From a phage, in the sequence record PZ445440.1: a stretch of 64,000 bases of DNA. One strand, given 5' to 3'. The notes under the pieces were generated by a model. The model did not search any database, was not told where the DNA came from, and saw only the letters and a list, made by a program, of their open reading frames with translations. Of this stretch, positions 13,659 through 49,837 are shown in pieces; the first letter of the stretch is position 1; every line of letters begins with the position of its first letter. The translations under genes were made by a program, and so were the position numbers.

Positions 13659-14199
13659 ATAAAAAATCCAAACTAGGCGAATCGCTAACAACTTCCTTCT
13701 TTTCAGCCCCAGGAGCTTTATAAGCGGATTCTTCATAATGCGTCATTTTATCGTAGATGTCTTGAATAAACGTTTCATCTACCAACGCTACCATATCATC
13801 GTCATGACTGTCGTAGACATTATGAACGAAGTAACTATATTTCTTTGCAACTTCCTTACGTTCTTTTTTGATACGTTGGACAAAAGCATTAAAACAAGCT
13901 CGAGTTATGTATGCATGTGGGTTATTGTACTTAGTTTCGTCGAAATTATGAAGTCCCTTAATAGAGGCTTCAATCCCATCTGCAATCATCTCCTGCTTCC
14001 AAGACTGGGTATATCCTGAAAAGTTGAAACGTTTGGACAGGCCTTCGGCGATAAGCATAATTGCTAAACCGATGGTATCATTCTGACGAATAATTTTGTT
14101 TGGGTCTTTATTATTTAAGAGCTCCTTTTTCCACTCGATTATAGCGGCGAGAAGCTCTTTATTATTCACATAGTTATTTTTAGGTTTTTGTTCAGTCAT
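13642..14199 (-). CDS. 55: late-transcription sigma factor gp55
   Basis: 185 aa; [67 protein letters not shown] matches T4 gp55. Confidence 0.95.
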
Positions 14200-14220
14200 A
14201 AGTACCTCTTAGCTCAATTC

Positions 14221-14265
14221 ATAGGTCTATTATATCATAATATTTAGAGACCTATCTTAAAGCAC
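14221..14265 (-). promoter_or_regulatory. gene 55 promoter region: MotA-box-like TGCTTTAAG, -10 inside inverted repeat ATAGGTCT/AGACCTAT
   Basis: read from sequence. Confidence 0.4.
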
Positions 14266-14274
14266 GAGATACTA

Positions 14275-14541
14275 TCAGAGCAAACAATAAGCCTGAAACA
14301 CTTTTTCCATTAAACGTTTGAACTCATGGATATCGATATAAAGCTCAGTAAGACCGGCATTATAAAGAAAATCTAAAAAGTTCTCATGTGTTTCGTTATA
14401 GACGCCTTCGTTTAATTGAGATACATGAGTTTCCCAAAAACCAACACCTTTAACGAATGGAAAATACGTGACTTTCATGTATTCGTCAACATAAAATTCG
14501 CCCAGCTTTTCTTCAGTTATACTGATTCGAGTTAATTTCAT
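14275..14541 (-). CDS. hypothetical protein
   Basis: track ORF. Confidence 0.5.
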   Translation of the reverse strand: MKLTRISITEEKLGEFYVDEYMKVTYFPFVKGVGFWETHVSQLNEGVYNETHENFLDFLYNAGLTELYIDIHEFKRLMEKVFQAYCLL

Positions 14542-16354: not shown

Positions 16355-16533
16355 GGCTTAATTTCCTTCGCAATTGAACAGAAGATACCACGGTCACAAA
16401 GCATTTCACCAATTTCTGGATATTTGATTGAACGGTACCAAACATCCAGGCTTGAAACTCTGGTTATCTGTACTGCGTTACCGTTGACAGAATAGTACTG
16501 GTCAACCTTAATTTCTTTATCTTCAATTGTCAT
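16351..16533 (-). CDS. hypothetical protein
   Basis: track ORF. Confidence 0.45.
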   Translation of the reverse strand: MTIEDKEIKVDQYYSVNGNAVQITRVSSLDVWYRSIKYPEIGEMLCDRGIFCSIAKEIKP

Positions 16534-16681
16534 TTTATTTTCCTCTATAGTAGATGGTTTAATCTTAACACATCTATTGAGGATGTAAACTGTTTTATGA
16601 AAATATTTTCAATTTGAGAGGGGCACAAGGAGATAGTGAAGTGAAGATTCCAATGGATTATATTAGAAACGAGATAAAGAA

Positions 16682-23804: not shown

Positions 23805-24764
23805 TTATGATTTTAATGCATTCATTGCGTTAAAAAGTTTAGAATACTGCAACTGGAGATTCGTTACAACACTTTGAGCATCACGAAGCTTAGCTTGTGC
23901 TTTGTCAAGTTCAACAGACAGTTGGTCTACAGTAGCCTTGATTTGGTTGTAATGATAATCTTCGGCTGGAAGAAGGTCATTAGAAACATTTAGTTTTACT
24001 GCAGACAGTTTGCACACATTTGGTAAACCTTTAAACATTGATTTACCTGAAGTAGAATAAGCACTTAGGACTTCAGCCTGTTCAATTGGGGTCCCAGTAA
24101 GCGATGCTTCGAACGTTGCATTTTCCTTTTTAAGATTTTGATAGTATTCAGAGTCTTTGTGCCACCATGGCGCAGGAACCTTTTTACCAATAGATACACG
24201 AGCCTGGATAGCGATATGGCCCTTATTCTTGATAGGGTCGATAATATTAAGCTCACGAGAATAAATTGCTTTAATCTCATGGATATTATCGCCTAACACT
24301 TCTAGCGCTTGGTGGAATACACGAGCAACGTTATCATTCTTAGGTTTATACGTAAGAGTGAACTCGTTCTCACTGATAACCATGATTTCTAACTTATCGT
24401 AAGTGTACTTAAGATGCTTCATGTTAACCGCTTGAGGACGAATACGAGAAGCAATGGCCATCAGATTGTTAAGGTTATTCCGGAACTGCTTAGCGAAATA
24501 TTGTCCTTCACCACCAATACAAAAATTACGAAGTTTCTGTTTGGCTAATAAACGGCTGAACTCACCATTTTTAATGAACTCTTTAACGGGTGTGTTAGTA
24601 ACGCATTCAAATTGAGTAAACTTACGAGAATTAATCCCATAATACGAACAGATTTCCTCAATCTCTTCAGGAGTCTTTACAGGCATACGGATAGGATTAG
24701 GTCCTGGAGTATATGCGTTCGAGGTAAATTCTTTGATAAGTTCTTTACGTGTAATAAAAGCCAT
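23805..24764 (-). CDS. hypothetical protein, 319 aa, C-terminal coiled coil
   Basis: track ORF. Confidence 0.55.
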   Translation of the reverse strand: MAFITRKELIKEFTSNAYTPGPNPIRMPVKTPEEIEEICSYYGINSRKFTQFECVTNTPVKEFIKNGEFSRLLAKQKLRNFCIGGEGQYFAKQFRNNLNNLMAIASRIRPQAVNMKHLKYTYDKLEIMVISENEFTLTYKPKNDNVARVFHQALEVLGDNIHEIKAIYSRELNIIDPIKNKGHIAIQARVSIGKKVPAPWWHKDSEYYQNLKKENATFEASLTGTPIEQAEVLSAYSTSGKSMFKGLPNVCKLSAVKLNVSNDLLPAEDYHYNQIKATVDQLSVELDKAQAKLRDAQSVVTNLQLQYSKLFNAMNALKS

Positions 24765-30566: not shown

Positions 30567-30726
30567 ACATTTGCAATTCGGTGTGGGCGTCAGCCATCTT
30601 TTTCATAGCTCTGTTAATGTCGATGTCTCCATCTTCGCAACCATGAGCATTTTCCCAATCAGATACCGCATTAGCGTACTCTTCAATCAAAAACATTAAC
30701 TTAGAAATTTTTTCTTTACGTGACAT
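30547..30726 (-). CDS. hypothetical protein
   Basis: track ORF trimmed to ATG downstream of promoter 30731-30782. Confidence 0.5.
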   Translation of the reverse strand: MSRKEKISKLMFLIEEYANAVSDWENAHGCEDGDIDINRAMKKMADAHTELQMYVNEIM

Positions 30727-30730
30727 AACG

Positions 30731-30782
30731 TTCTCCTCTAGTAAGTAAGGTTTACTATAACACAACCTGAGGAGAAGTAAAC
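30731..30782 (-). promoter_or_regulatory. early promoter GTTTAC/TTATAGT; spacer arm TTCTCCTC complementary to downstream arm GAGGAGAA that is the SD of the 30726 gene
   Basis: read from sequence. Confidence 0.5.
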
Positions 30783-30793
30783 TGATAGATGCC

Positions 30794-30820
30794 AAAAAGC
30801 CCCGACCTTTCGGAAGGGGC
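30794..30820 (-). terminator. rho-independent terminator (GCCCC...GGGGC hairpin + UUUUU) after rI
   Basis: read from sequence; near-identical architecture to 47475-47501. Confidence 0.6.
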
Positions 30821-30827
30821 TAGTAAA

Positions 30828-31130
30828 TTAGATAGATGTAGGCTCTAATTTTATTTTCATGAACTCGGCAAATTGTCTGGCAGTTTTTATGCCTTGTTCA
30901 TGACATTCAAATGCATCATCACAGGGGCTATTTTTGTAATGCTTTGCCATATACTTATAGAATTTTTCAGAATTCTCGACATTTTGAATTTCAAACAAAG
31001 TATATACGTTTTTAATCCCTGATTCCATAAAGTTATCAAAGTATGGGTCAACATATGCAGTGCCAACAATAGGAGTCGTTGCTGCAAAAAACCCCAGCAT
31101 CGCCACAATGACTATCGCTCTTAAGGCCAT
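30828..31130 (-). CDS. rI: lysis-inhibition antiholin RI (signal-anchored periplasmic)
   Basis: MALRAIVIVAMLGFFA...DPYFDNFMESGIKNVYTLFE...CDDAFEC resembles T4 RI. Confidence 0.8.
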   Translation of the reverse strand: MALRAIVIVAMLGFFAATTPIVGTAYVDPYFDNFMESGIKNVYTLFEIQNVENSEKFYKYMAKHYKNSPCDDAFECHEQGIKTARQFAEFMKIKLEPTSI

Positions 31131-31142
31131 ATAGGCCTCCTG

Positions 31143-31355
31143 TTAATTTTGGCCAGTATTTATTTTTCGCCTTTGGACGGCATTAACATCTGCGAGGTAT
31201 TTTTCCAGCTTGCGCTTGCGTGTATAATCAGCTTTAGAACCAGTTTGACGGATATCCTCGTTTAAATGAGAAATAGAATGTCCTAATTCTCTTCGGATTT
31301 CATCCAATTGGGTTACAGTAAGATTACGAAGTTGTCTTTCGTTTAATTGCTGCAT
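31143..31355 (-). CDS. hypothetical protein
   Basis: track ORF. Confidence 0.5.
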
Positions 31356-31382
31356 ATATACCTCTTGGTTAGATATTAGTAT

Positions 31383-31964
31383 TTATAACAACCCTGTCAA
31401 ATCGTTCCAATGCTTCCGGCATAATGACACATATCTATCGGTATCACCAATTTCAATTTGACTGCCATCTGTAATTGGAAGTCCGTCTTCCGTGACTCTA
31501 GCTACCATTGTGGCCTTTTTACCACAATGACAGACACCTTTAAGTTCAACAAGCTTATCGGCAATAGCCATTAATGCTTGAGAACCTTCAAATAGATTAC
31601 CTTTAAAATCTGTTCGTAGTCCGTATGCCATTACCGGCACATTGTATACGTCAACAATACGACTAAGTTGATACACCTTTTCAGTAGTTAAGAACTGAGC
31701 TTCGTCAACAAATACACAGTGAATATCCTTTTGTGCTGCAGCCCATTTATAGAATTCAAAGATATCCATGTCTTTTGTAATTATATTGGCGTCCTGACGA
31801 ATACCAATACGAGAGACTATTTCACCTTTTGAATCACGAGTATCAATAGCCGGTTTAAGAACTAATACACCCATGCCACGTTCTTTATAGTTATGTGCGG
31901 CAGTAAGTAATGAAGCAGACTTACCAGCGTTCATAGCGGCATATGTAAAAATTAAACTAGCCAT
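31383..31964 (-). CDS. tk: thymidine kinase
   Basis: 193 aa, P-loop MNAGKS, VDEAQF, C-terminal CxxC...C...H zinc site. Confidence 0.95.
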   Translation of the reverse strand: MASLIFTYAAMNAGKSASLLTAAHNYKERGMGVLVLKPAIDTRDSKGEIVSRIGIRQDANIITKDMDIFEFYKWAAAQKDIHCVFVDEAQFLTTEKVYQLSRIVDVYNVPVMAYGLRTDFKGNLFEGSQALMAIADKLVELKGVCHCGKKATMVARVTEDGLPITDGSQIEIGDTDRYVSLCRKHWNDLTGLL

Positions 31965-31973
31965 AAGAGTCCC

Positions 31974-32156
31974 TTATAGTGAATTCACGTAGTCAATGAG
32001 TTCTTGTTCTTTCCTGTCAAATGATTCCAACAATGCTTGATATTCTTCATCTGTTAAAGGAGCATATTCATCATACGCATTGGTGGCCGCTTGCTCATCC
32101 AATAGGTCGTGGATAAGTTCGAACAGTTTAGTTTTCTCTTCTTTAGTCAATTTCAT
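31974..32156 (-). CDS. hypothetical acidic protein
   Basis: track ORF. Confidence 0.5.
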   Translation of the reverse strand: MKLTKEEKTKLFELIHDLLDEQAATNAYDEYAPLTDEEYQALLESFDRKEQELIDYVNSL

Positions 32157-32647
32157 TTAGGTTCCCAATCAACAATCACAATTTCTAGTTTAGTGGAATA
32201 CGTATCTAAAATCTCTTCGATGACATCCCAGTTTCCACCACCAATACCTGCACCAATTCTTGGCATATAAATTACAGGCTTTGTTATCTTATTCTTTCCG
32301 AATTCATTTAATTCTATTATACAATTCATTAAAGCATAGTACTCAAAATTAGGTCCAGGCTCAAACTGTGTATAAAGATTAAAGCAATAAGCTTTATGGG
32401 TCTTAAAATATTTTTCATAAACCGAATAAGTCCCGAGTTTAGACTCGTCTCCGAATTCGGTTTGAAGTTTATCGGCTTCCAGAATTTTTGGATAAGCCTT
32501 TGCTAATTGTCCTGCTACACCGGCACCCATTGTATGAAAACAATTACACCCATGAGCAATATTATTACCTTTAGAAAACAGGGCGACAATATCGCCCTTG
32601 ATATAGTTTTTAATCACTTGCTGCAAGTCCTCTAGTATAAGAGTCAA
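32153..32647 (-). CDS. macrodomain protein, TARG1/OARD1/DarG-like
   Basis: KGDIVALFSKGNNIAHGCNCFHTMGAGVAGQ and YMPRIGAGIGGGNW parallel human OARD1 GDLF..SLAHCISEDCRMGAGIA and SMPRIGCGLDRLQW from memory. Confidence 0.6.
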   Translation of the reverse strand: MTLILEDLQQVIKNYIKGDIVALFSKGNNIAHGCNCFHTMGAGVAGQLAKAYPKILEADKLQTEFGDESKLGTYSVYEKYFKTHKAYCFNLYTQFEPGPNFEYYALMNCIIELNEFGKNKITKPVIYMPRIGAGIGGGNWDVIEEILDTYSTKLEIVIVDWEPK

Positions 32648-32957
32648 CTAGACGGTCCACCATAGAATTGCATGCTGCCTTATCTTTAGGTTCCGCCACC
32701 GAGCATTCTAATATTTGCCATTTTTTATGATATCGTTTAATTAAGGTAGACGCCTTGAACCTACTAGACGCCCCATCTTTTTCTCCGTCTTTATATGCGT
32801 ATAACAATTTTTGTGAAAAATCTACTTTACACTCTTGACTTTTACCACAATAATCAGACGCCGTTCTGTTTGTATACTCCGTTACATCAGTATATGTAGT
32901 ATTAGCAAGAGCGTTAAATGAAACCAAGCCAACTATTAAAGCCAACATTTTGGTCAT
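32610..32957 (-). CDS. secreted small protein (signal peptide, 4 Cys)
   Basis: N-terminal hydrophobic leader MTKMLALIVGLVSFNALA; overlaps macro gene 3' end by 38 nt. Confidence 0.5.
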   Translation of the reverse strand: MTKMLALIVGLVSFNALANTTYTDVTEYTNRTASDYCGKSQECKVDFSQKLLYAYKDGEKDGASSRFKASTLIKRYHKKWQILECSVAEPKDKAACNSMVDRLVDSYTRGLAASD

Positions 32958-33496
32958 TCTTTTATTTCCAGTAGTTTATTTGATTTAAGGTAATTAGCCT
33001 TTTCTAGGACTTCAGAAGCATATTTACTTCCAGCACTTGTCTTCCATCCAGCATTATATGAGGATATAGCTTTTCTTATATCCCCGTTATGTATATTTAA
33101 CCAATAAGAAAATTCGATATAAGCCCATCTGGCTGAATTAGACCGCTTAGATAGCATTTTCTTAATTTGGGCATCAGTCATATTATAACCAAGCTGGTTA
33201 ATTCTTGCCCTCATTGTTGGTAGATAATTTTGGAACATTCCATACGCATGGTGACCTTTCTTATCTTTAAGATTAATACCGGCAGATGATTCCTGCCATA
33301 GTATTGCGGCCATTATGTATCCAAGTCCTTTCTTATGCATATTTTCATGCGTTTTAAATTTTCCGTCCTTAGAAAACTGTTCCCCAAACTGATAAGCATA
33401 ATTCAAGTTATCGAGTTGGACATTACTAAAAGTATGCTCGGAGCTATGTGCTGATAATGAAAGAGCAAATAGACCAGCGAGTAGTGCTTTTCTCAT
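32954..33496 (-). CDS. periplasmic lytic-transglycosylase-like protein (signal peptide + SLT-like)
   Basis: signal peptide MRKALLAGLFALSLSAHS; WQESSAG...YGMFQ resembles SLT catalytic E-S and GLMQ motifs. Confidence 0.5.
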   Translation of the reverse strand: MRKALLAGLFALSLSAHSSEHTFSNVQLDNLNYAYQFGEQFSKDGKFKTHENMHKKGLGYIMAAILWQESSAGINLKDKKGHHAYGMFQNYLPTMRARINQLGYNMTDAQIKKMLSKRSNSARWAYIEFSYWLNIHNGDIRKAISSYNAGWKTSAGSKYASEVLEKANYLKSNKLLEIKE

Positions 33497-33504
33497 GTTT
33501 ACCT

Positions 33505-33963
33505 CTAGATTTTAATCACTGCTTTAGAAGCTTTTCCTGGTAGTCGTTTACTGTTAATAATAGCCATTCTGCATTGAAGAGTCTTCATTTTGAATGCTGG
33601 ATTTTCGCGACAAACTGTAAGTCCTAACCAAAGATTTCCATCGGTTATTTCTAAACGGCCTGGACGGTATTCGACGCCTTCGACAAAATCTTCATCAACG
33701 TCCGGACGAGCCGGCATTGATAAAAATTCTGCAACTTCTTTAACATGATTTTTTACTTTATGAAATAATTCAAAAACGTAATTCTCATCTATTTCTCTCT
33801 GGATGGCACGATCTAAGAGATGCTGAGAATACTTGATATGAAAGCCTGGTAGTCCAAGAGACTTTGCAGCATCTTTTATACCGGCATTTATTTTGCGGAA
33901 CTCCGTTTCAAAGATTCGACGGAGTTTATTACGGCGGATAAAAACTTCCGAATTGATAGTCAT
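33505..33963 (-). CDS. regB: endoribonuclease RegB
   Basis: MTINSEVFIRRNKLRR...HLLDRAIQREIDENYVFELFHK...RLPGKASKAVIK matches T4 RegB. Confidence 0.9.
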   Translation of the reverse strand: MTINSEVFIRRNKLRRIFETEFRKINAGIKDAAKSLGLPGFHIKYSQHLLDRAIQREIDENYVFELFHKVKNHVKEVAEFLSMPARPDVDEDFVEGVEYRPGRLEITDGNLWLGLTVCRENPAFKMKTLQCRMAIINSKRLPGKASKAVIKI

Positions 33964-33970
33964 TTTGATT

Positions 33971-34020
33971 TCTCCTCTAGTTGACAAGTCTATAGTAACA
34001 CAACTAGAGGAGAAGTAAAC
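33971..34020 (-). promoter_or_regulatory. early promoter GTTTAC/TTACTAT with 13-bp inverted repeat TCTCCTCTAGTTG/CAACTAGAGGAGA; downstream arm contains regB SD
   Basis: read from sequence. Confidence 0.55.
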
Positions 34021-34024
34021 TACT

Positions 34025-34240
34025 TTATTGATAAAACGGAGTTAAAGCCCAAGATTCTTTAGATACCATATTGGCGAAATGCCTCATCTCTTCGATTTGG
34101 CGACGACGCTGGTCAGCATAGTCTTCTTCGCCTTCTTCCTTACAATCTTCAAGGTCTTCTTCAAGATACTTTAAGTATTCACTACAAATTTTGTTGACCT
34201 TTTCTTGGAAGTCCAATAACCCAGTAATAGTAGAAGCCAT
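34025..34240 (-). CDS. hypothetical acidic protein
   Basis: track ORF. Confidence 0.5.
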   Translation of the reverse strand: MASTITGLLDFQEKVNKICSEYLKYLEEDLEDCKEEGEEDYADQRRRQIEEMRHFANMVSKESWALTPFYQ

Positions 34241-34506
34241 TAGTATTTTTCCTCAGGACGAAATACTGCACGACATGCCCACATGCTGGCTTCTTTTAGA
34301 TGTTGCTTAGCATACTTAAGAGCCTGCACTGCATCCATATCTTCTTTGGTTTGTTGCTCTGTTTCGTTTTCTTTCAAGATATATGCTTCTTCAATCAGAG
34401 CATCAAACAACAATCCAAGACGGACTTCGGCATCTTTAATAGCGTTCACTTTACTGATTTTATCATCGGTATGCGGCTTGTAGCCTTTGATGTCTTCAAT
34501 CGACAT
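34240..34506 (-). CDS. hypothetical protein (88 aa from MSIEDIKGYKPH)
   Basis: track ORF trimmed to internal ATG. Confidence 0.45.
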   Translation of the reverse strand: MSIEDIKGYKPHTDDKISKVNAIKDAEVRLGLLFDALIEEAYILKENETEQQTKEDMDAVQALKYAKQHLKEASMWACRAVFRPEEKY

Positions 34507-34720
34507 AAGGAATTTCCTCATCGGTGGCAAGGTCGTATTCGACCAATTGGATAGGCTCATTAATACCATATCCACGTACAGTGATATCAGTTGTCGGATA
34601 GTTTCCAGTAATATCACCCATTCTAAATGATTCAATGAATGATTGCTCGCCTGAGCAACTAAACCAGGCGGCAAAACATTTTAAAACATCTTCAGACCCT
34701 TCTATAATCAATTTAGCCAT
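34496..34720 (-). CDS. hypothetical protein
   Basis: track ORF. Confidence 0.45.
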   Translation of the reverse strand: MAKLIIEGSEDVLKCFAAWFSCSGEQSFIESFRMGDITGNYPTTDITVRGYGINEPIQLVEYDLATDEEIPYVD

Positions 34721-35082
34721 TATAGACTCTCAGTAAAGGTACGAGCGATAACGTCGCGCTGCTGTTCCGGAGTCAGAGAGTTAAAGCGAACTGCATAACC
34801 TGATACACGGATGGTCAGCTGCGGATATTTTTCTGGATGCTTAACTGCATCTTCCAGAGTTTCGCGACGCAGAACGTTAACGTTCAGGTGTTGACCACCT
34901 TCAATTTTAACTTTAGGTTGATGTTCAATTTCAATTTCACGGGCATTCAAACCGTAGAAAATTTCCGGGTCTACAATAGCGTCTTCTTTAAAAGTCTTAG
35001 AGACGATAATCCTGGCTTGAGTACCGTCTTCAAAATAAATAGTGCCTTTATGTGCACCTTCAAGAATTTGATATGCTTTCAT
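34720..35082 (-). CDS. autonomous glycyl-radical cofactor (GrcA/YfiD-like)
   Basis: C-terminal [55 protein letters not shown] matches E. coli YfiD C-terminus. Confidence 0.85.
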
Positions 35083-35088
35083 ATAACC

Positions 35089-35397
35089 TCAATTAGAAAA
35101 TAAATTTATCCAAGTTTTTTCTTTAATCAAAAATGGGTCGGAATTAAACGCCATTAAACTTTGAGTGATTAATCCCTTAAATGGCCCATCAATAAATTCC
35201 ATTTTGAAATGCGGAATACTAGTCATCAACCGTGCATTAGGAGCAGTACAAAGAACCTGCTGCCCTGCGAACGGACCTTTAGTCAAACGGTATCGTTTAG
35301 GTTTAAAATGGTAAATCTCGTAATTTTCTACAAGGGCCCTTTTATTGCATACTGGGCTGTTATAACAATATTCAAAAACTTCAATAGTGGTCATCAT
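35089..35397 (-). CDS. hypothetical protein
   Basis: track ORF. Confidence 0.5.
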   Translation of the reverse strand: MMTTIEVFEYCYNSPVCNKRALVENYEIYHFKPKRYRLTKGPFAGQQVLCTAPNARLMTSIPHFKMEFIDGPFKGLITQSLMAFNSDPFLIKEKTWINLFSN

Positions 35398-35936
35398 TGC
35401 ATTCCAATCACAAAAAATTGAGGACGAACCGTTTCACCTGTGTCCGCGTTATGGCTTCGACAACAGTGTTGTATTGTTTTGATATGGATGTCGTAAATCT
35501 TATCCATATCAGGAGCTTTAATAGGTTCATCAATTATATACAAGATACGAGAAAGCGATAATCCACGGAATTTATGACCTTCATTACCGATAAAGCTACG
35601 TAACGAATCGTGCCACAGACGGAATCGGATATCTTCGTCACTAAAACGAATAAAATCATTTTTGATAGAATCGGCTGAAATTCTCGCATACGCCGAGGTA
35701 TTAGACAGGACAATTACTGTACCACCGTCATAAAGCCAATTAGCCGCAAAATTAATTACTGCGGTAGATTTGCCTGATTGACGTCCACCGTCTATACGAA
35801 GCGTACAGTACTGCTTGAGCAAGTCTTCAATCGGTGGGACATAACCGTTCTTACAAATTTCTTCTACTCTAGCATCAGAATGGTGTGTAAAAGCATTCAT
35901 CAGGGATAGATAAGGCCCAGTTAAAAATGTTCTCAT
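35394..35936 (-). CDS. P-loop NTPase of unknown function
   Basis: Walker A GGRQSGKST, Walker B LYIIDE. Confidence 0.55.
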   Translation of the reverse strand: MRTFLTGPYLSLMNAFTHHSDARVEEICKNGYVPPIEDLLKQYCTLRIDGGRQSGKSTAVINFAANWLYDGGTVIVLSNTSAYARISADSIKNDFIRFSDEDIRFRLWHDSLRSFIGNEGHKFRGLSLSRILYIIDEPIKAPDMDKIYDIHIKTIQHCCRSHNADTGETVRPQFFVIGMQ

Positions 35937-36114
35937 ATTATTTCTCTTAAGGTTTGGGCCATTCCGTGGCACATGAATTGTCCATTTCTGTATTTACCCA
36001 TTACCGCACTTGGGCTCGACCTTATTACAGGTTGGCGGGAATCCCTCATAGAATCATGAGGTCCAGGTTGTTCCCATTTTATTTGAAGGTAAATAGGCCT
36101 AAGTATAGGCCTAT

Positions 36115-36693
36115 TTAATTACCACGGGCTGCATTAGCAACGGCGTAAGCGTACTGAACATTAGCGTCTTTAAACGTACCTTTAGAGGTATCTATTTCCG
36201 CCTTAAAGCCACCTTTAGCCATAACATCGGCAAATTCTTTACGGAAAGCCATTGCATCAAGACCTTTCCATGATGATTTATGCTTGGCAAATTCAAGACC
36301 GGCGTAGTTGACAGCCTTAGCTAATTTATTATCAATAACCCATTTACCTGCTTTAGGCACAAACTTCGGGCCTTTTTGTTTAGAGAACAGTTTTAAATTC
36401 CAGCGACGAAGGTCACTGTCGGCTTTAACAAAAGCTGCGTCTAAGTTACTAGCAACAACATCTTCAATATGAGCAAATTTAAGTCCGTCAACTTCAATAT
36501 TTAGATCGTTACGCCAGCGTAGTCCTTCCCAAGCGAAGGCTTTAAAATCAGAAGCTTTTGTGGCTAGATATCGTTCAAGTGGAGCAGTTTTAGGGTCAAA
36601 GCCGTTTCCGCCACGATAATTCCACTCGTCCTTATTAATGCCTTGAGCTTTTCCTGCAAAGGCCTCGGCGATAAATTCTTTATATGTTTTCAT
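36115..36693 (-). CDS. internal-protein-like capsid-targeted protein (CTS MKTYKEFIAEA)
   Basis: N-terminus matches T4 internal protein capsid targeting sequence. Confidence 0.65.
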   Translation of the reverse strand: MKTYKEFIAEAFAGKAQGINKDEWNYRGGNGFDPKTAPLERYLATKASDFKAFAWEGLRWRNDLNIEVDGLKFAHIEDVVASNLDAAFVKADSDLRRWNLKLFSKQKGPKFVPKAGKWVIDNKLAKAVNYAGLEFAKHKSSWKGLDAMAFRKEFADVMAKGGFKAEIDTSKGTFKDANVQYAYAVANAARGN

Positions 36694-36718
36694 TTTGTTC
36701 CTATTGATTTAATTTATG

Positions 36719-37033
36719 TTATTCTTTAGGGAAGTTTTTAGAGTATGCATCATAAAGTTTATTACCAATACGGCGGAAGACTTTAGCTGCAAAACGGTTT
36801 TCAGGGTTTTTAATCATGATTTGCATCATGTAAGTTCCTGCATCCGAAAGAGCTTCTTCGTAGTACCCATTAATTTCTTTAAGAGTCCTACGTTTACCGC
36901 CAGGACCATCAACAGTAATTTTCCATTTACCAGTAGAAGTGCGGCTCGGTGGTTCAACTTGTTCAATCCAAATATAACCACCTTCAACGCGTTGGTTGGC
37001 GGATTCTGCAATAAATTCTTTATACGTTTTCAT
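36719..37033 (-). CDS. internal-protein-like capsid-targeted protein (CTS MKTYKEFIAES)
   Basis: CTS N-terminus. Confidence 0.65.
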   Translation of the reverse strand: MKTYKEFIAESANQRVEGGYIWIEQVEPPSRTSTGKWKITVDGPGGKRRTLKEINGYYEEALSDAGTYMMQIMIKNPENRFAAKVFRRIGNKLYDAYSKNFPKE

Positions 37034-37096
37034 TTTTGTTTCCTTGTTTGTTTTGATAGAGTAATTATACCATATTAATACTTAAGCGTAAACAAT

Positions 37097-37357
37097 TTAA
37101 GCTTGACCGCCAGAAATAATTCCGAAGTTGTTAAAATCATGTCCAATATCGTCAACATCTACTTTAGGACTTGCTACAACATAAGCAATTTCACTACGTT
37201 TTGCATAGGTGTTGATTTCTTTACCATCGCCACCTAAAAAAGAATACCCATTACGTTTTAATGAGCCAAAGTCTTCGGCATCACCAACGAAAGCTTTAAC
37301 TTTAAATTTAGGACCTTTGGCAACTGCTTCAGCGATAAATTCTTGATACATTTTCAT
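37097..37357 (-). CDS. internal-protein-like capsid-targeted protein (CTS MKMYQEFIAEA)
   Basis: CTS at internal ATG with SD AAGGGAAAA; track start is upstream extension. Confidence 0.6.
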   Translation of the reverse strand: MKMYQEFIAEAVAKGPKFKVKAFVGDAEDFGSLKRNGYSFLGGDGKEINTYAKRSEIAYVVASPKVDVDDIGHDFNNFGIISGGQA

Positions 37358-37364
37358 TTTTCCC

Positions 37365-37778
37365 TTAGTAAATTGATTTACCATAGTATTTGTACCAAGT
37401 CGGACGTTGAGCAATTTTTTCATCTAAGCGTGCTTGACTTATCGCGATGGATGCTTCGGACGGGACGTAATTATTACGAAATTCTACAGGGATGTCGGAA
37501 ATATCCTGGACTGTCGTGTCCTTGATTTTGAAACCACGTTTCAAACATTCAGCGATTAGCTCGATTTGACGTAAACGTAAAAATTCGAGTTTGTCGTAAA
37601 AGAATGTTACGTGACCTGTGCCTAAGATAAATGTTGGAGAGATTTTAAAATCCTTTACACGTTTACCGTTTTGAACATGTTTACGGACTGCACCAAATAT
37701 GCGTGGTAATTCACGATACTCAGCCATAAGATGTTGGTCGGTCAGTTCAGAAACAAGTGTTAAATTGATACGGGTCAT
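37365..37778 (-). CDS. denV: endonuclease V (pyrimidine dimer DNA glycosylase) DenV
   Basis: [35 protein letters not shown]... matches T4 DenV. Confidence 0.95.
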
Positions 37779-37781
37779 AAT

Positions 37782-37835
37782 TTCCTCCAAGTAGTTGATG
37801 AATGTATAGTATCAAAACCCTTGGAGGAAGTAAAC
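37782..37835 (-). promoter_or_regulatory. early promoter GTTTAC/TACTAT; spacer arm TTCCTCCAAG complementary to downstream arm CTTGGAGGAA that contains denV SD
   Basis: read from sequence. Confidence 0.5.
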
Positions 37836-38118: not shown

Positions 38119-38603
38119 ATATACGCTTTCCAAGTTCCTGTTTTAAATGTTGAGATTACGCGTTTCGCGCGATTAGGTGTCTGACGATACCATTTAGATT
38201 GGGCTAGATTTACTGCCGCTTCATCCCAACGTTTCTGTTGAAGCATACGAAGAGAATTAGTAAAACCAGCGACGCCTGCTACACCCATTTGGAAGACCAT
38301 ATTGACCAATGCACATCGACGAACCGCATCTAAAGAATCATATACCGGTTTAAGTTTAGCATTACCCAAGATTCCGCGAACGGCTTTATCAACGTCTTCA
38401 TTAAATAGCTTTTCAGCCTCATCAAGGGTAATTGTACCGTTGCATTTACGTCCGATCATTCTGTCAAGTTCAGCTTTAGCTACGGCTAAAGACGGGTTCT
38501 TTGTTACTAAATGGCCTATGCCAATCGTCCAAAAGCCTTCGGTGTCTTTGTATAAAGTCAGTCTAAGACCTTCGTCATTACGAAGCATTTCAAATATATT
38601 CAT
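38115..38603 (-). CDS. e: lysozyme (endolysin) e
   Basis: [35 protein letters not shown]... matches T4 lysozyme; catalytic E11, D20, T26 present. Confidence 0.97.
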
Positions 38604-38606
38604 AAT

Positions 38607-38628
38607 ACCTCCCACGTTTATAGGAGGT
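38607..38628 (-). promoter_or_regulatory. lysozyme leader hairpin (ACCTCC-TATAAACGT-GGGAGGT) sequestering the e SD; late-promoter-like TATAAA in loop
   Basis: read from sequence; same arrangement as described for T4 gene e. Confidence 0.6.
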
Positions 38629-38637
38629 ATTTATTAC

Positions 38638-45839: not shown

Positions 45840-46115
45840 TTATTTCATATTATCGAAATATTCTTCAGCGATTTCGTCATTATCATGGTAAACTTTAGAA
45901 GACAGTTTAACATAACCTTCTGCCGTGAACATATTAATCACAACCTTTATAGTATACCACTGTCCGTCTTCATTACCCATTACTGCGTAAGTTTCAAACA
46001 TCGGATGCTCAGGTCCAATAACTTTAATATCATTCACCGTACGACTGAAATCTTCTGGAACGCATTTCATAAAGAAGTTGAACAGTTCACCGTAATTATC
46101 CATTTCATTCTCCAA
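45840..46115 (-). CDS. hypothetical acidic protein
   Basis: track ORF. Confidence 0.5.
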   Translation of the reverse strand: MENEMDNYGELFNFFMKCVPEDFSRTVNDIKVIGPEHPMFETYAVMGNEDGQWYTIKVVINMFTAEGYVKLSSKVYHDNDEIAEEYFDNMK

Positions 46116-46143
46116 GTTTTTTCTGTATCGGTAGTTGATAGTT

Positions 46144-46175
46144 GTATAGTACCACGGAAGAACAGGGATGTAAAC
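46144..46175 (-). promoter_or_regulatory. early promoter GTTTAC-N17-ACTATAC
   Basis: read from sequence. Confidence 0.4.
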
Positions 46176-49798: not shown

Positions 49799-49837
49799 GA
49801 TAGGACTACTATAACATAGTCCTATCAGCATGTAAAC
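49799..49837 (-). promoter_or_regulatory. early promoter GTTTAC/TTATAGT with perfect inverted repeat GATAGGACTA/TAGTCCTATC
   Basis: read from sequence. Confidence 0.5.

Follow-up and report, generated by a model that had tools for sequence, protein, structure and literature searches.

Early Promoters with Shine-Dalgarno Complements in Their Spacers before regB, denV and Two Small Genes of a T-Even Phage: Probable Promoter-Gated Masks of Translation

Introduction

Which of several overlapping early transcripts is translated at a given gene of a T-even phage, and can the choice be written into the promoter itself? The question is raised by regB, denV and a small gene starting at position 30,726 (the 30726 gene) in a phage DNA of 64,000 nucleotides (nt), sequence record PZ445440.1; the whole of this stretch is called the window here. 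Each gene is preceded by an early promoter and an inverted repeat. A first-pass annotation had proposed that the downstream arm of the repeat is the Shine-Dalgarno sequence (SD) of the gene and that the complementary arm lies in the promoter spacer, by the logic established for the lysozyme gene e of T4. RNA reading through from upstream would then have the SD paired, while RNA initiated at the promoter would have it free. From computed folding and comparison with related phages, we consider it rather probable that regB, denV and two small genes carry promoter-gated translational masks, in which the gene's own early promoter unlocks the SD.

The 8.6 kb around these sites are 100% identical to Escherichia phage ChristianSchoenbein (Bas46, MZ501056), a Mosigvirus of the PhAPEC2/JS09 group, and ~80% identical to T4-type Tequatroviruses. 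The phage thus belongs to Mosigvirus and is not T4; the gene names regB and denV given in the first-pass annotation hold, the products being named in the sequence record and the gene names being supplied by T4. Every gene of the region lies on the minus strand, and the 3′ arm is therefore the arm of lower coordinates.

Anatomy of the Promoter Hairpins

The positions of the promoter elements and hairpin arms are collected in Table 1. In the case of regB, the mRNA strand reads GTTTAC-TTCTCCTCTAGTTG-TGT-TACTAT-AGACTTGT-CAACTAGAGGAGAA-ATCAAA-ATG, and the bases complementary to the GGAG core are found 17-20 nt upstream of the final base of the −10 element. The order is GTTTAC-TTCCTCCAAG-GGTTTTGA-TACTAT-ACATTCATCAACTA-CTTGGAGGAA-ATT-ATG at denV and GTTTAC-TTCTCCTC-AGGTTGTGT-TATAGT-AAACCTTACTTACTA-GAGGAGAA-CGTT-ATG at the 30726 gene, where an inner helix is added by pairing of AGGTT (30768-30764) with AACCT (30752-30748). 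Each of the three has a 5′ arm that starts with the first spacer base after the −35 element, and a loop that holds the −10 element and the predicted start.

Table 1. Promoter elements, hairpin arms and related features in the window, by site.
Site	Feature	Position	Strand	Basis or remarks
regB	Early promoter −35, GTTTAC	34015..34020	−	Sequence and promoter scan
regB	Hairpin 5′ arm (anti-SD), TTCTCCTCTAGTTG	34001..34014	−	First 14 nt of the 17-nt spacer; repeat I2
regB	−10, TACTAT, within loop	33992..33997	−	Sequence and promoter scan; predicted start ~33984-33986
regB	Hairpin 3′ arm, CAACTAGAGGAGAA	33970..33983	−	Contains SD GAGGAG (33972-33977); ATG 33963-33961
denV	Early promoter −35, GTTTAC	37830..37835	−	Sequence and promoter scan
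denV	Hairpin 5′ arm, TTCCTCCAAG	37820..37829	−	First 10 nt of the 18-nt spacer; repeat I14
denV	−10, TACTAT, within loop	37806..37811	−	Predicted start ~37798-37800
denV	Hairpin 3′ arm, CTTGGAGGAA	37782..37791	−	Contains SD GGAGG (37784-37788); ATG 37778-37776
30726 gene	Promoter −35, GTTTAC (30782-30777), and 5′ arm, TTCTCCTC (30776-30769)	30769..30782	−	
30726 gene	−10, TATAGT	30759-30754	−	
30726 gene	3′ arm (SD), GAGGAGAA	30731..30738	−	ATG 30726-30724
30726 gene, upstream	Terminator, GCCCCTTCCGAAAGGTCGGGGC then TTTTT, 3′ of rI	30794..30821	−	Sequence and terminator scan (30815-30800)
16533 gene	Fourth site: −35 GTTTAC (16590-16585), anti-SD TCCTC (16583-16579), SD GAGGA (16545-16541)	16541..16590	−	ATG 16533
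e (lysozyme)	Leader hairpin, AATACCTCC...GGAGGTATT	38601..38633	−	Late-promoter-like TATAAAC in loop; ATG 38603; positive control

The arms that had been marked in the first-pass annotation were recovered base for base. At regB the claimed arms (33971-33983 and 34001-34013) are exact, and perfect pairing extends one base beyond them to 14 bp. At denV (37782-37791 and 37820-37829) it spans 10 bp and was also found in the repeat search, and at the 30726 gene (30731-30738 and 30769-30776) the perfect pairing of TTCTCCTC with GAGGAGAA is 8 bp long, below the 10-nt cut-off for inverted repeats in find_repeats. By sequence and promoter scan the complementary arm lies in the promoter spacer at all three genes, and the 3′ arm is placed as a ribosome-binding site in each, with GAGGAG or GGAGG 5-9 nt before the ATG.

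The three promoters match the early sigma-70 consensus, and the late motif TATAAATA is absent from the three sites. In T4, regB has a promoter that is considered typical of the early class (PMC3014915 section 11), and promoter-proximal 5′ ends have been detected for denV (PMC1702504). The open reading frame (ORF) upstream of regB stops 4 nt before the −35 element, and the internal-head-protein-like ORF upstream of denV ends with TAG (37839-37837) 1 nt before it; no intrinsic terminator was found by terminator scan between either ORF and the promoter. With the upstream ORF so close to the −35 element and no intrinsic terminator between them, read-through RNA is to be expected at both genes. Long early transcripts extend into e in T4 (PMC3014915).

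The hairpins themselves were also considered as intrinsic terminators, a reading that was rejected because they have no U-run and are not called by the terminator scan; the regB hairpin is followed by AAUCAAAAUG and that of denV by AUUAUG. A search of Rfam 15 gave no family match, the sole match, mir-308 (E = 0.67), being spurious and elsewhere in the region.

Predicted Accessibility of the Shine-Dalgarno Sequence

Partition function calculations were employed to compare the two kinds of RNA, the promoter-initiated one being folded from a start 7 nt after the −10 element. For regB, the probability that the SD is unpaired was 0.000 in the read-through form and 0.77 in the promoter-initiated form; the corresponding values were 0.000 and 0.50 for denV and 0.000 and 0.71 for the 30726 gene. 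Moving the start to any position 3-10 nt after the −10 element leaves the contrast intact. The pairing states that the first-pass annotation had anticipated are thus predicted for all three genes. The read-through fold of regB (−23.2 kcal/mol, z −3.9) was equalled in stability by none of 200 shuffled sequences, and that of denV reached −19.1 kcal/mol with z −2.3 against shuffles.

The lysozyme gene e of the window provides a positive control: its SD is unpaired with a probability of 0.000 when the RNA reads through and of 0.53-0.68 when it comes from the late-promoter region. The appeal to lysozyme in the first-pass annotation is therefore borne out by the same computed accessibility as at regB and denV, whose hairpins are at least as stable by prediction as that of e (−16.3 kcal/mol). 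Over the three sites the predicted hairpins span −14 to −23 kcal/mol. When the 63 gene starts on the minus strand that have an SD and an ATG were ranked by SD accessibility in a 100-nt polycistronic context, denV was the most occluded, followed by e, regB, gene 55, the gene starting at 16533 (the 16533 gene) and, in sixth place, the 30726 gene; the median unpaired probability was 0.30.

The complementarity was weighed against chance over the 15 minus-strand promoters of the form GTTTAC-N17/18-TAnnnT that precede a gene with an identifiable SD in the window. For each, the duplex energy between the segment from spacer to predicted start and the SD region was compared with 2064 background 31-mers of the same strand. 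The energies were −19.1 kcal/mol for regB and −18.2 kcal/mol for denV (p ~0.001 in both cases), −14.1 kcal/mol for the 30726 gene (p = 0.011) and −10.8 kcal/mol (p = 0.005) for a further promoter with its −35 element at 16590. The remaining 11 promoters gave p > 0.15, and their SDs are 0.19-0.76 unpaired in read-through RNA, except for that at 46175 (0.03).

The promoter at 16590 adds a fourth site, with the order GTTTAC-A-TCCTC-AATAGATG...CATCTA-CTATA-GAGGA, before a 60-aa ORF (phrog_2283) downstream of nrdC; its SD is 0.001 unpaired in read-through RNA against 0.65 in promoter-initiated RNA. The subset of three genes named in the first-pass annotation therefore stands as to its members and is incomplete, since the 16590 site also qualifies and 46175 does so marginally. 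At this marginal fifth case (46103-46175, minus strand), the spacer TTCTTCC pairs with GGAGAA around a bulge, and the duplex energy is non-significant (p = 0.15).

Comparison across T4-Like Phages

The same anatomy is found in T4. The T4 regB leader reads GTTTAC-TTTTCCTCTTGACTG-TGG-TATAAT-TTTTCTAT-CAGTTAAGAGGAGAA and forms 15 pairs including two G·U, and the T4 denV arms (TCTCCTGTAG/CTACAGGAGA) have the architecture of the window with a different sequence. In the 60 kb of T4 that were examined, the signature occurs at four of ~18 early promoters, namely those of regB, denV, modB and motB.2.

A wider sample was taken from IMG/VR and comprised 16 regB loci and 36 T4-like denV loci. The regB stems were of at least five different sequences and the denV stems of a dozen; in all of them the SD half is retained while the upper stem is swapped for unrelated yet complementary sequence. 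For regB, the upper stems are TAGTTG/CAACTA in the window, TTGACTG/CAGTTAA in T4, TTTATG/CATAAA in locus L011 and TGTAAG/CTTACA in locus L014; those of denV include CAAG/CTTG, TGTAG/CTACA, GTTTG/CAAAC and TGTG/CACA. When the structures were anchored on the GGAG:CUCC core, cognate arms formed 3.0 contiguous upper-stem pairs compared with 0.76 for non-cognate arms (permutation p ≤ 1e-4), and one stem position is CG, GC, UA and AU in roughly equal numbers. For 26 of the 37 distinct T4-like regB and denV leaders scored, the unpaired probability of the SD is <1% when read-through RNA is folded and 0.3-0.9 when the RNA starts at the promoter, while leaders with a shuffled upstream part have a mean of 0.2-0.5. 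Beside the sequence anatomy, the predicted folding and the statistical excess, the analysis thus yields conservation with compensatory change.

In 31 of 43 leaders, all sites of the window among them, the anti-SD is placed 17-22 nt upstream of the final base of the −10 element. At this place, the beginning of the spacer, it clearly precedes every start that the promoter could use. The upstream stop codon falls between 1 nt inside the −35 element and 6 nt before it in most lineages, and the 5′ arm is never within the upstream ORF, so that upstream translation does not melt it.

This geometry bears on translational coupling, in which a ribosome terminating upstream would melt the base of the hairpin and the downstream gene would be translated only if the upstream one is. 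The anti-SD begins as little as 5 nt after the stop codon in sites of the spacer type (5-12 nt, and 10 nt at regB of the window) and the SD pairs at the stem base, as coupling would have it. A terminating ribosome covers ~9 nt past the stop codon; at such sites, 0-4 of the 10-15 pairs would be opened by it, and at regB of the window none. Where the 5′ arm overlaps the −10 element, it lies >25 nt from the stop codon, and the distance is 20-50 nt among such leaders, loci L012 and L054 and the 30726 gene. In classical coupling structures, unlike here, the 5′ arm is inside the upstream ORF. Coupling was rejected on this geometry, and we hold it to be very improbable.

Several loci depart from the common pattern. 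L018, the most distant regB lineage (40% identity), and the denV loci of jumbo phages are without SD pairing and have a terminator plus promoter instead. In four denV loci from jumbo phages of 345-378 kb (L043, L045, L048 and L049), a terminator-like hairpin, GGGTTGACTTCGGTCAGCCC then TTTTT, precedes denV; its 5′ arm holds a −35 element, TTGAC, and TATAAT follows, a promoter-in-terminator arrangement similar to the promoter/stem-loop cassettes known as PeSL (see below). The regB loci L012 and L011 have the same 3′ arm, and L012 has a 5′ arm with a GG mismatch and a different upstream gene. In locus L036, denV stands behind an ipIII-type promoter and its SD is still paired (UUUCUCC/GGAGGGA, two U·G). 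From their sequences, L011/L012 and L036 look like products of recombination within promoter cassettes, after which the mask was kept or repaired.

Weighing the Evidence

A number of points weigh against masking of translation, and those at the 30726 gene are considered first. This gene encodes a 59-aa protein (phrog_2758) that is 47% identical to a T4-type homologue at the position of T4 MobD.4. Its hairpin has 8 bp and a 30-nt loop, and the read-through fold (−16.7 kcal/mol, z −0.76) is indistinguishable from shuffles, 43 of 200 being as stable. The strong intrinsic terminator at 30821-30794 lies ~11 nt upstream of the −35 element, and little read-through is therefore expected. The homologue MobD.4 is without a promoter of its own, and the relatives of the site in IMG/VR are near-identical, so that they lend it no comparative support.

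The remaining points concern the other sites or the comparison as a whole. Promoters and start sites in PZ445440.1 are consensus predictions, the start being deduced from spacing. The SD of denV is merely 0.37-0.5 unpaired in promoter-initiated RNA. In 12 of the 43 leaders, from denV of other genera, the 5′ arm overlaps both the −10 element and the discriminator, and the anti-SD is found 4-8 nt downstream of the −10 element; since it straddles the predicted start, the case for a mask in these leaders depends on the exact start site. Alignment of regB and denV leaders with MAFFT followed by RNAalifold gave zero predicted pairs, which is an alignment artefact because the arms shift register relative to the −35 element and the ATG. 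Overall, the minimum free energies of sense and antisense strands do not differ (−18.2 vs −17.4, p = 0.37). Finally, the preference for G·U over A·C (59 vs 6), with mismatches that are mostly U·G having the G in the SD, is phylogenetically non-independent and could be explained in part by a constrained SD together with C-to-T mutation bias. The strand evidence for a structure at the RNA level, which includes T4 regB with −22.4 for the sense and −12.5 for the opposite strand, is suggestive. As for the 12 denV leaders, their moved 5′ arm would still be paired with the SD and largely outside the promoter-initiated RNA, which matches what the model predicts.

Chance complementarity without function has been considered mainly for the 30726 site, where the short stem, the ordinary fold and the near-identical relatives speak for it. 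Even there the duplex energy differs from background and the SD is the sixth most occluded of 63, and the site looks like a copy of the regB cassette that has diverged. At regB and denV, chance is excluded by the duplex energies, the folding of the leaders and the permutation of cognate arms. As an explanation it is scarcely credible overall, and it is a live option for the 30726 site only. The promoter and leader cassettes of the 30726 gene (30731-30782) and regB (33970-34020) look paralogous by eye. The SD region of the 30726 gene pairs better with the 5′ arm of regB (−19.2 kcal/mol) than with its own, and this cross-pairing suggests duplication of a cassette and then drift.

Such resemblance between cassettes is expected of another explanation, in which the hairpin is a DNA element of the PeSL type, that is, a mobile promoter/stem-loop cassette, recombination linker or cruciform, whose overlap with the SD is incidental. 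The apparent promoter swaps at L011/L012 and L036 agree with it, as do the matches of the regB promoter region to 4-5 places per Mosigvirus genome and the non-significant comparison of sense and antisense stability. Nevertheless, the sole constant across lineages is pairing to the SD, an RNA-level element, while the 5′ arm shifts between the spacer and the −10 element or discriminator and the stem sequence turns over completely. The U·G character of the mismatches and the much weaker structure of T4 regB on the opposite strand also argue against a DNA element, and the PeSL stem-loops that have been described exclude the SD. Mobility of cassettes accounts for their spread and not for pairing that is restored after divergence, and a pure DNA element is accordingly rated improbable.

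Taken together, the interpretation of the first-pass annotation is supported by each available computational test in the case of regB and denV, and weakly in the case of the 30726 gene.

Proposed Mechanism and Its Consequences

In the mechanism proposed for the promoter-gated mask, a sigma-70-type early promoter would be wedged right behind the upstream stop codon at each gene, and the first 8-14 spacer nt after GTTTAC would act as the complement of the SD and of a few bases upstream of it. RNA started upstream would contain both arms and fold once the SD is transcribed, and the resulting hairpin (−16 to −23 kcal/mol by prediction) would hide the SD, so that ribosomes would be unable to initiate on the masked cistron. 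RNA from the gene's own promoter would start 2-3 nt before the 3′ arm, lack the 5′ arm and have a free SD. In this way regB, denV and the two small genes would depend on the firing of their own early promoters for translation, which would be uncoupled from the long delayed-early or middle read-through transcripts that continue later. Three elements of this scheme are inferred: where transcription starts in PZ445440.1, whether and in what amount read-through RNA is made, and what follows for translation.

T4 early promoters are turned off 2-3 min after infection, and regB is described as tightly regulated (PMC3014915). Because of this shut-off, translation would be expected to come as a pulse that follows the gene's own promoter, with later read-through RNA silent.

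A secondary consequence would concern RegB itself. This nuclease needs single-stranded GGAG and is inhibited by structure, and a masked SD would therefore be protected from it in long RNA. It has to be asked, then, whether protection is the main function, the hairpin shielding the GGAG of the SD and the polycistronic RNA from RegB or host RNases while short promoter-initiated RNAs are cut, with silencing as a by-product. RegB does cleave its own SD in T4 and relatives (PMC3014915), and GGAG or GGAU is in the stem at three of the four sites of the window and in T4 regB, modB and motB.2. Against this stand the unmasked GGAG SDs behind the early promoters at 49837, 42156, 40861, 30333 and 46175, and the SD of the 16533 gene, GAGGAA, which is a poor RegB motif. 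Moreover, the GGAG of T4 denV is already resistant to RegB through its 3′ context and the hairpin is kept nonetheless (PMC1702504). Shielding as the main function is thus unlikely, and shielding and a translational mask are not mutually exclusive.

The other secondary consequence would be that the cistron left untranslated in read-through RNA becomes subject to polarity through Rho, or to decay. Delayed-early RNA of T4 is terminated by Rho or attacked by nucleases unless it is translated (PMC2988021 section 19), and an untranslated first cistron could for this reason cause polarity. Taken as the function in itself, this would make each early promoter an insulator that ends upstream-initiated transcripts by exposing them to Rho or nucleases, and in the work that described PeSL, attenuation of upstream transcription was proposed as a role of stem-loops at promoters (PMC2839356 section 14). 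Polarity of this kind is conjectural, and the hairpins have no U-tract and are not intrinsic terminators. It also presupposes the translational block and thereby extends promoter-gated masking instead of replacing it; as the principal function we find it decidedly unlikely.

These strands can be combined in a broader proposal, which is put forward tentatively and with less than even confidence. About a quarter of T-even early promoters (four of 15 in the window and four of about 18 in 60 kb of T4) might be promoter-gated translational insulators with an anti-SD in the spacer or discriminator, kept by compensatory evolution over several genera. RNA reading through them would stay untranslated, out of reach of RegB and open to Rho or decay. 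If this is true, it would give a sequence-level basis to the boundary between immediate-early and delayed-early expression and to the tight RegB pulse.

The mask alone, if confirmed, would mean that the T4 lysozyme mechanism is not confined to a few late and homing-endonuclease genes and that T-even phages have a general, evolutionarily maintained way to choose which overlapping transcript of an early gene gets translated. It would explain how RegB, the nuclease that destroys early mRNAs, can be made in a short pulse though later transcripts cross regB, and it bears on the distinction between immediate-early and delayed-early genes and on the role of Rho in T4. At least some stem-loops in the PeSL promoter cassettes, which shuffle genes, would gain a functional reason. 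In practical terms, RNA abundance alone would be insufficient to infer expression in these phages, and engineers who place these genes under other promoters would transfer a hidden translational off-switch with them.

Other Hairpins of the Window

The leader of gene 55, which encodes the late sigma factor (~14199-14285, minus strand), has an outer helix, GUAUCUC/GAGGUAC, that buries the SD, and an inner hairpin, ATAGGTCT/AGACCTAT, with TATAAT in the loop; TGCTT, a motif like a MotA box, follows the outer 5′ arm. From this arrangement, gene 55 may follow the logic of alternative 5′ ends with a middle promoter. The seventh most occluded SD (unpaired probability 0.008) belongs to a 319-aa ORF with ATG at 24764 (minus strand), downstream of a TATAAT-containing region, and its structure is less clear-cut.

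Promoter hairpins that leave the SD outside were also observed on the minus strand, with −35 elements at 49837, 42156, 40861, 30333, 26463 and 50192. In each, the spacer contains the 5′ arm, the loop contains the −10 element and the 3′ arm stops near the start site; the complete hairpin is thus present only in read-through RNA or in DNA. Paralogous hairpins of this kind have compensatory differences (CTGATAGGACT/AGTCCTATCAG vs TTGGTAGGACT/AGTCCTACCAA) and sense-strand G·U pairs. T4 ipII, T4 ipIII and the promoter at T4 57990 are similar to them. The internal-head-protein gene has at its 3′ end a perfect 12-bp palindrome, TAAATAGGCCTA-N4-TAGGCCTATTTA (36090-36117, repeat I8), which overlaps the stop codon; judged by its sequence, the palindrome may form a hairpin at the transcript end.

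Comparison with Known Systems

Stem-loops at these promoters have reportedly been seen before. Valerie et al. (1986, Nucleic Acids Res 14:8637) are said to have noted, for that one genome, potential stem-loops before ipIII, ipII, denV and orf61.9 (= regB) in the region of T4 from 58.3 to 65.5 kb, and McPheeters et al. (1986) reportedly described the leader hairpin of T4 gene e with its internal late promoters. Part of the observation is therefore old, and the logic is known from e, soc, 49 and I-TevI; the form with an early promoter and the anti-SD in its spacer appears to be new. Neither regB nor denV nor any case with an early promoter is in the list of SD-sequestering structures in the 2010 review PMC3014915, and full-text searches for the idea of an SD mask at an early promoter gave only 2010 reviews of T4, neither of which lists such a case.

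The closest parallel is T4 e. As proposed for regB and denV, its transcripts started upstream bury the SD, and a promoter between or within the arms gives a translatable RNA without the 5′ arm; the hairpin cuts lysozyme synthesis ~100-fold (PMC3014915 section 29). The internal promoter of e, unlike those of regB and denV, is late and gp55-dependent and delays translation, whereas here it is an early sigma-70 promoter with the anti-SD between its −35 and −10 elements. Because the promoter is early, the temporal effect predicted here is opposite to that at e, with translation in the immediate-early burst and none later. The logic of alternative 5′ ends is shared by soc, 49, I-TevI, I-TevII/III, Aeh1 mobE and segB, the structures of which are likewise conserved among relatives (PMC3014915 section 29). 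In that group, by contrast, the internal promoters that are stated (e and I-TevI) are late, and most of the genes are late or homing-endonuclease genes (PMC3014915).

In MS2 coat/replicase and in E. coli rpmI-rplT, the SD of the downstream cistron is paired in the polycistronic RNA by an arm inside the upstream ORF, and ribosomes open it. The SD is likewise paired here, but the arm lies beyond the stop codon and would be removed by use of the internal promoter.

The PeSL cassettes are related in layout, having a strong sigma-70-like early promoter right after the stop codon, followed by SD and ATG (Arbiol et al. 2010, PMC2839356; Comeau et al. 2014, PMC4122927). Their stem-loop can sit between the −35 and −10 elements or overlap the −10 element, G·T pairs have been noted in them, and they are repeated around the genome and have been implicated in cassette shuffling (PMC2839356; PMC4122927). 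The 30726 gene has the classical terminator-plus-promoter form of a PeSL, with a separate true terminator upstream. PeSL hairpins differ from those of regB and denV in being compact, often with G/C tracts, in having been read as terminators or attenuators, and in leaving the SD outside (PMC2839356; PMC4122927). In the hairpins described here, the stem spans the promoter, the 3′ arm is the SD, a U-tract is missing and the proposed action is on translation.

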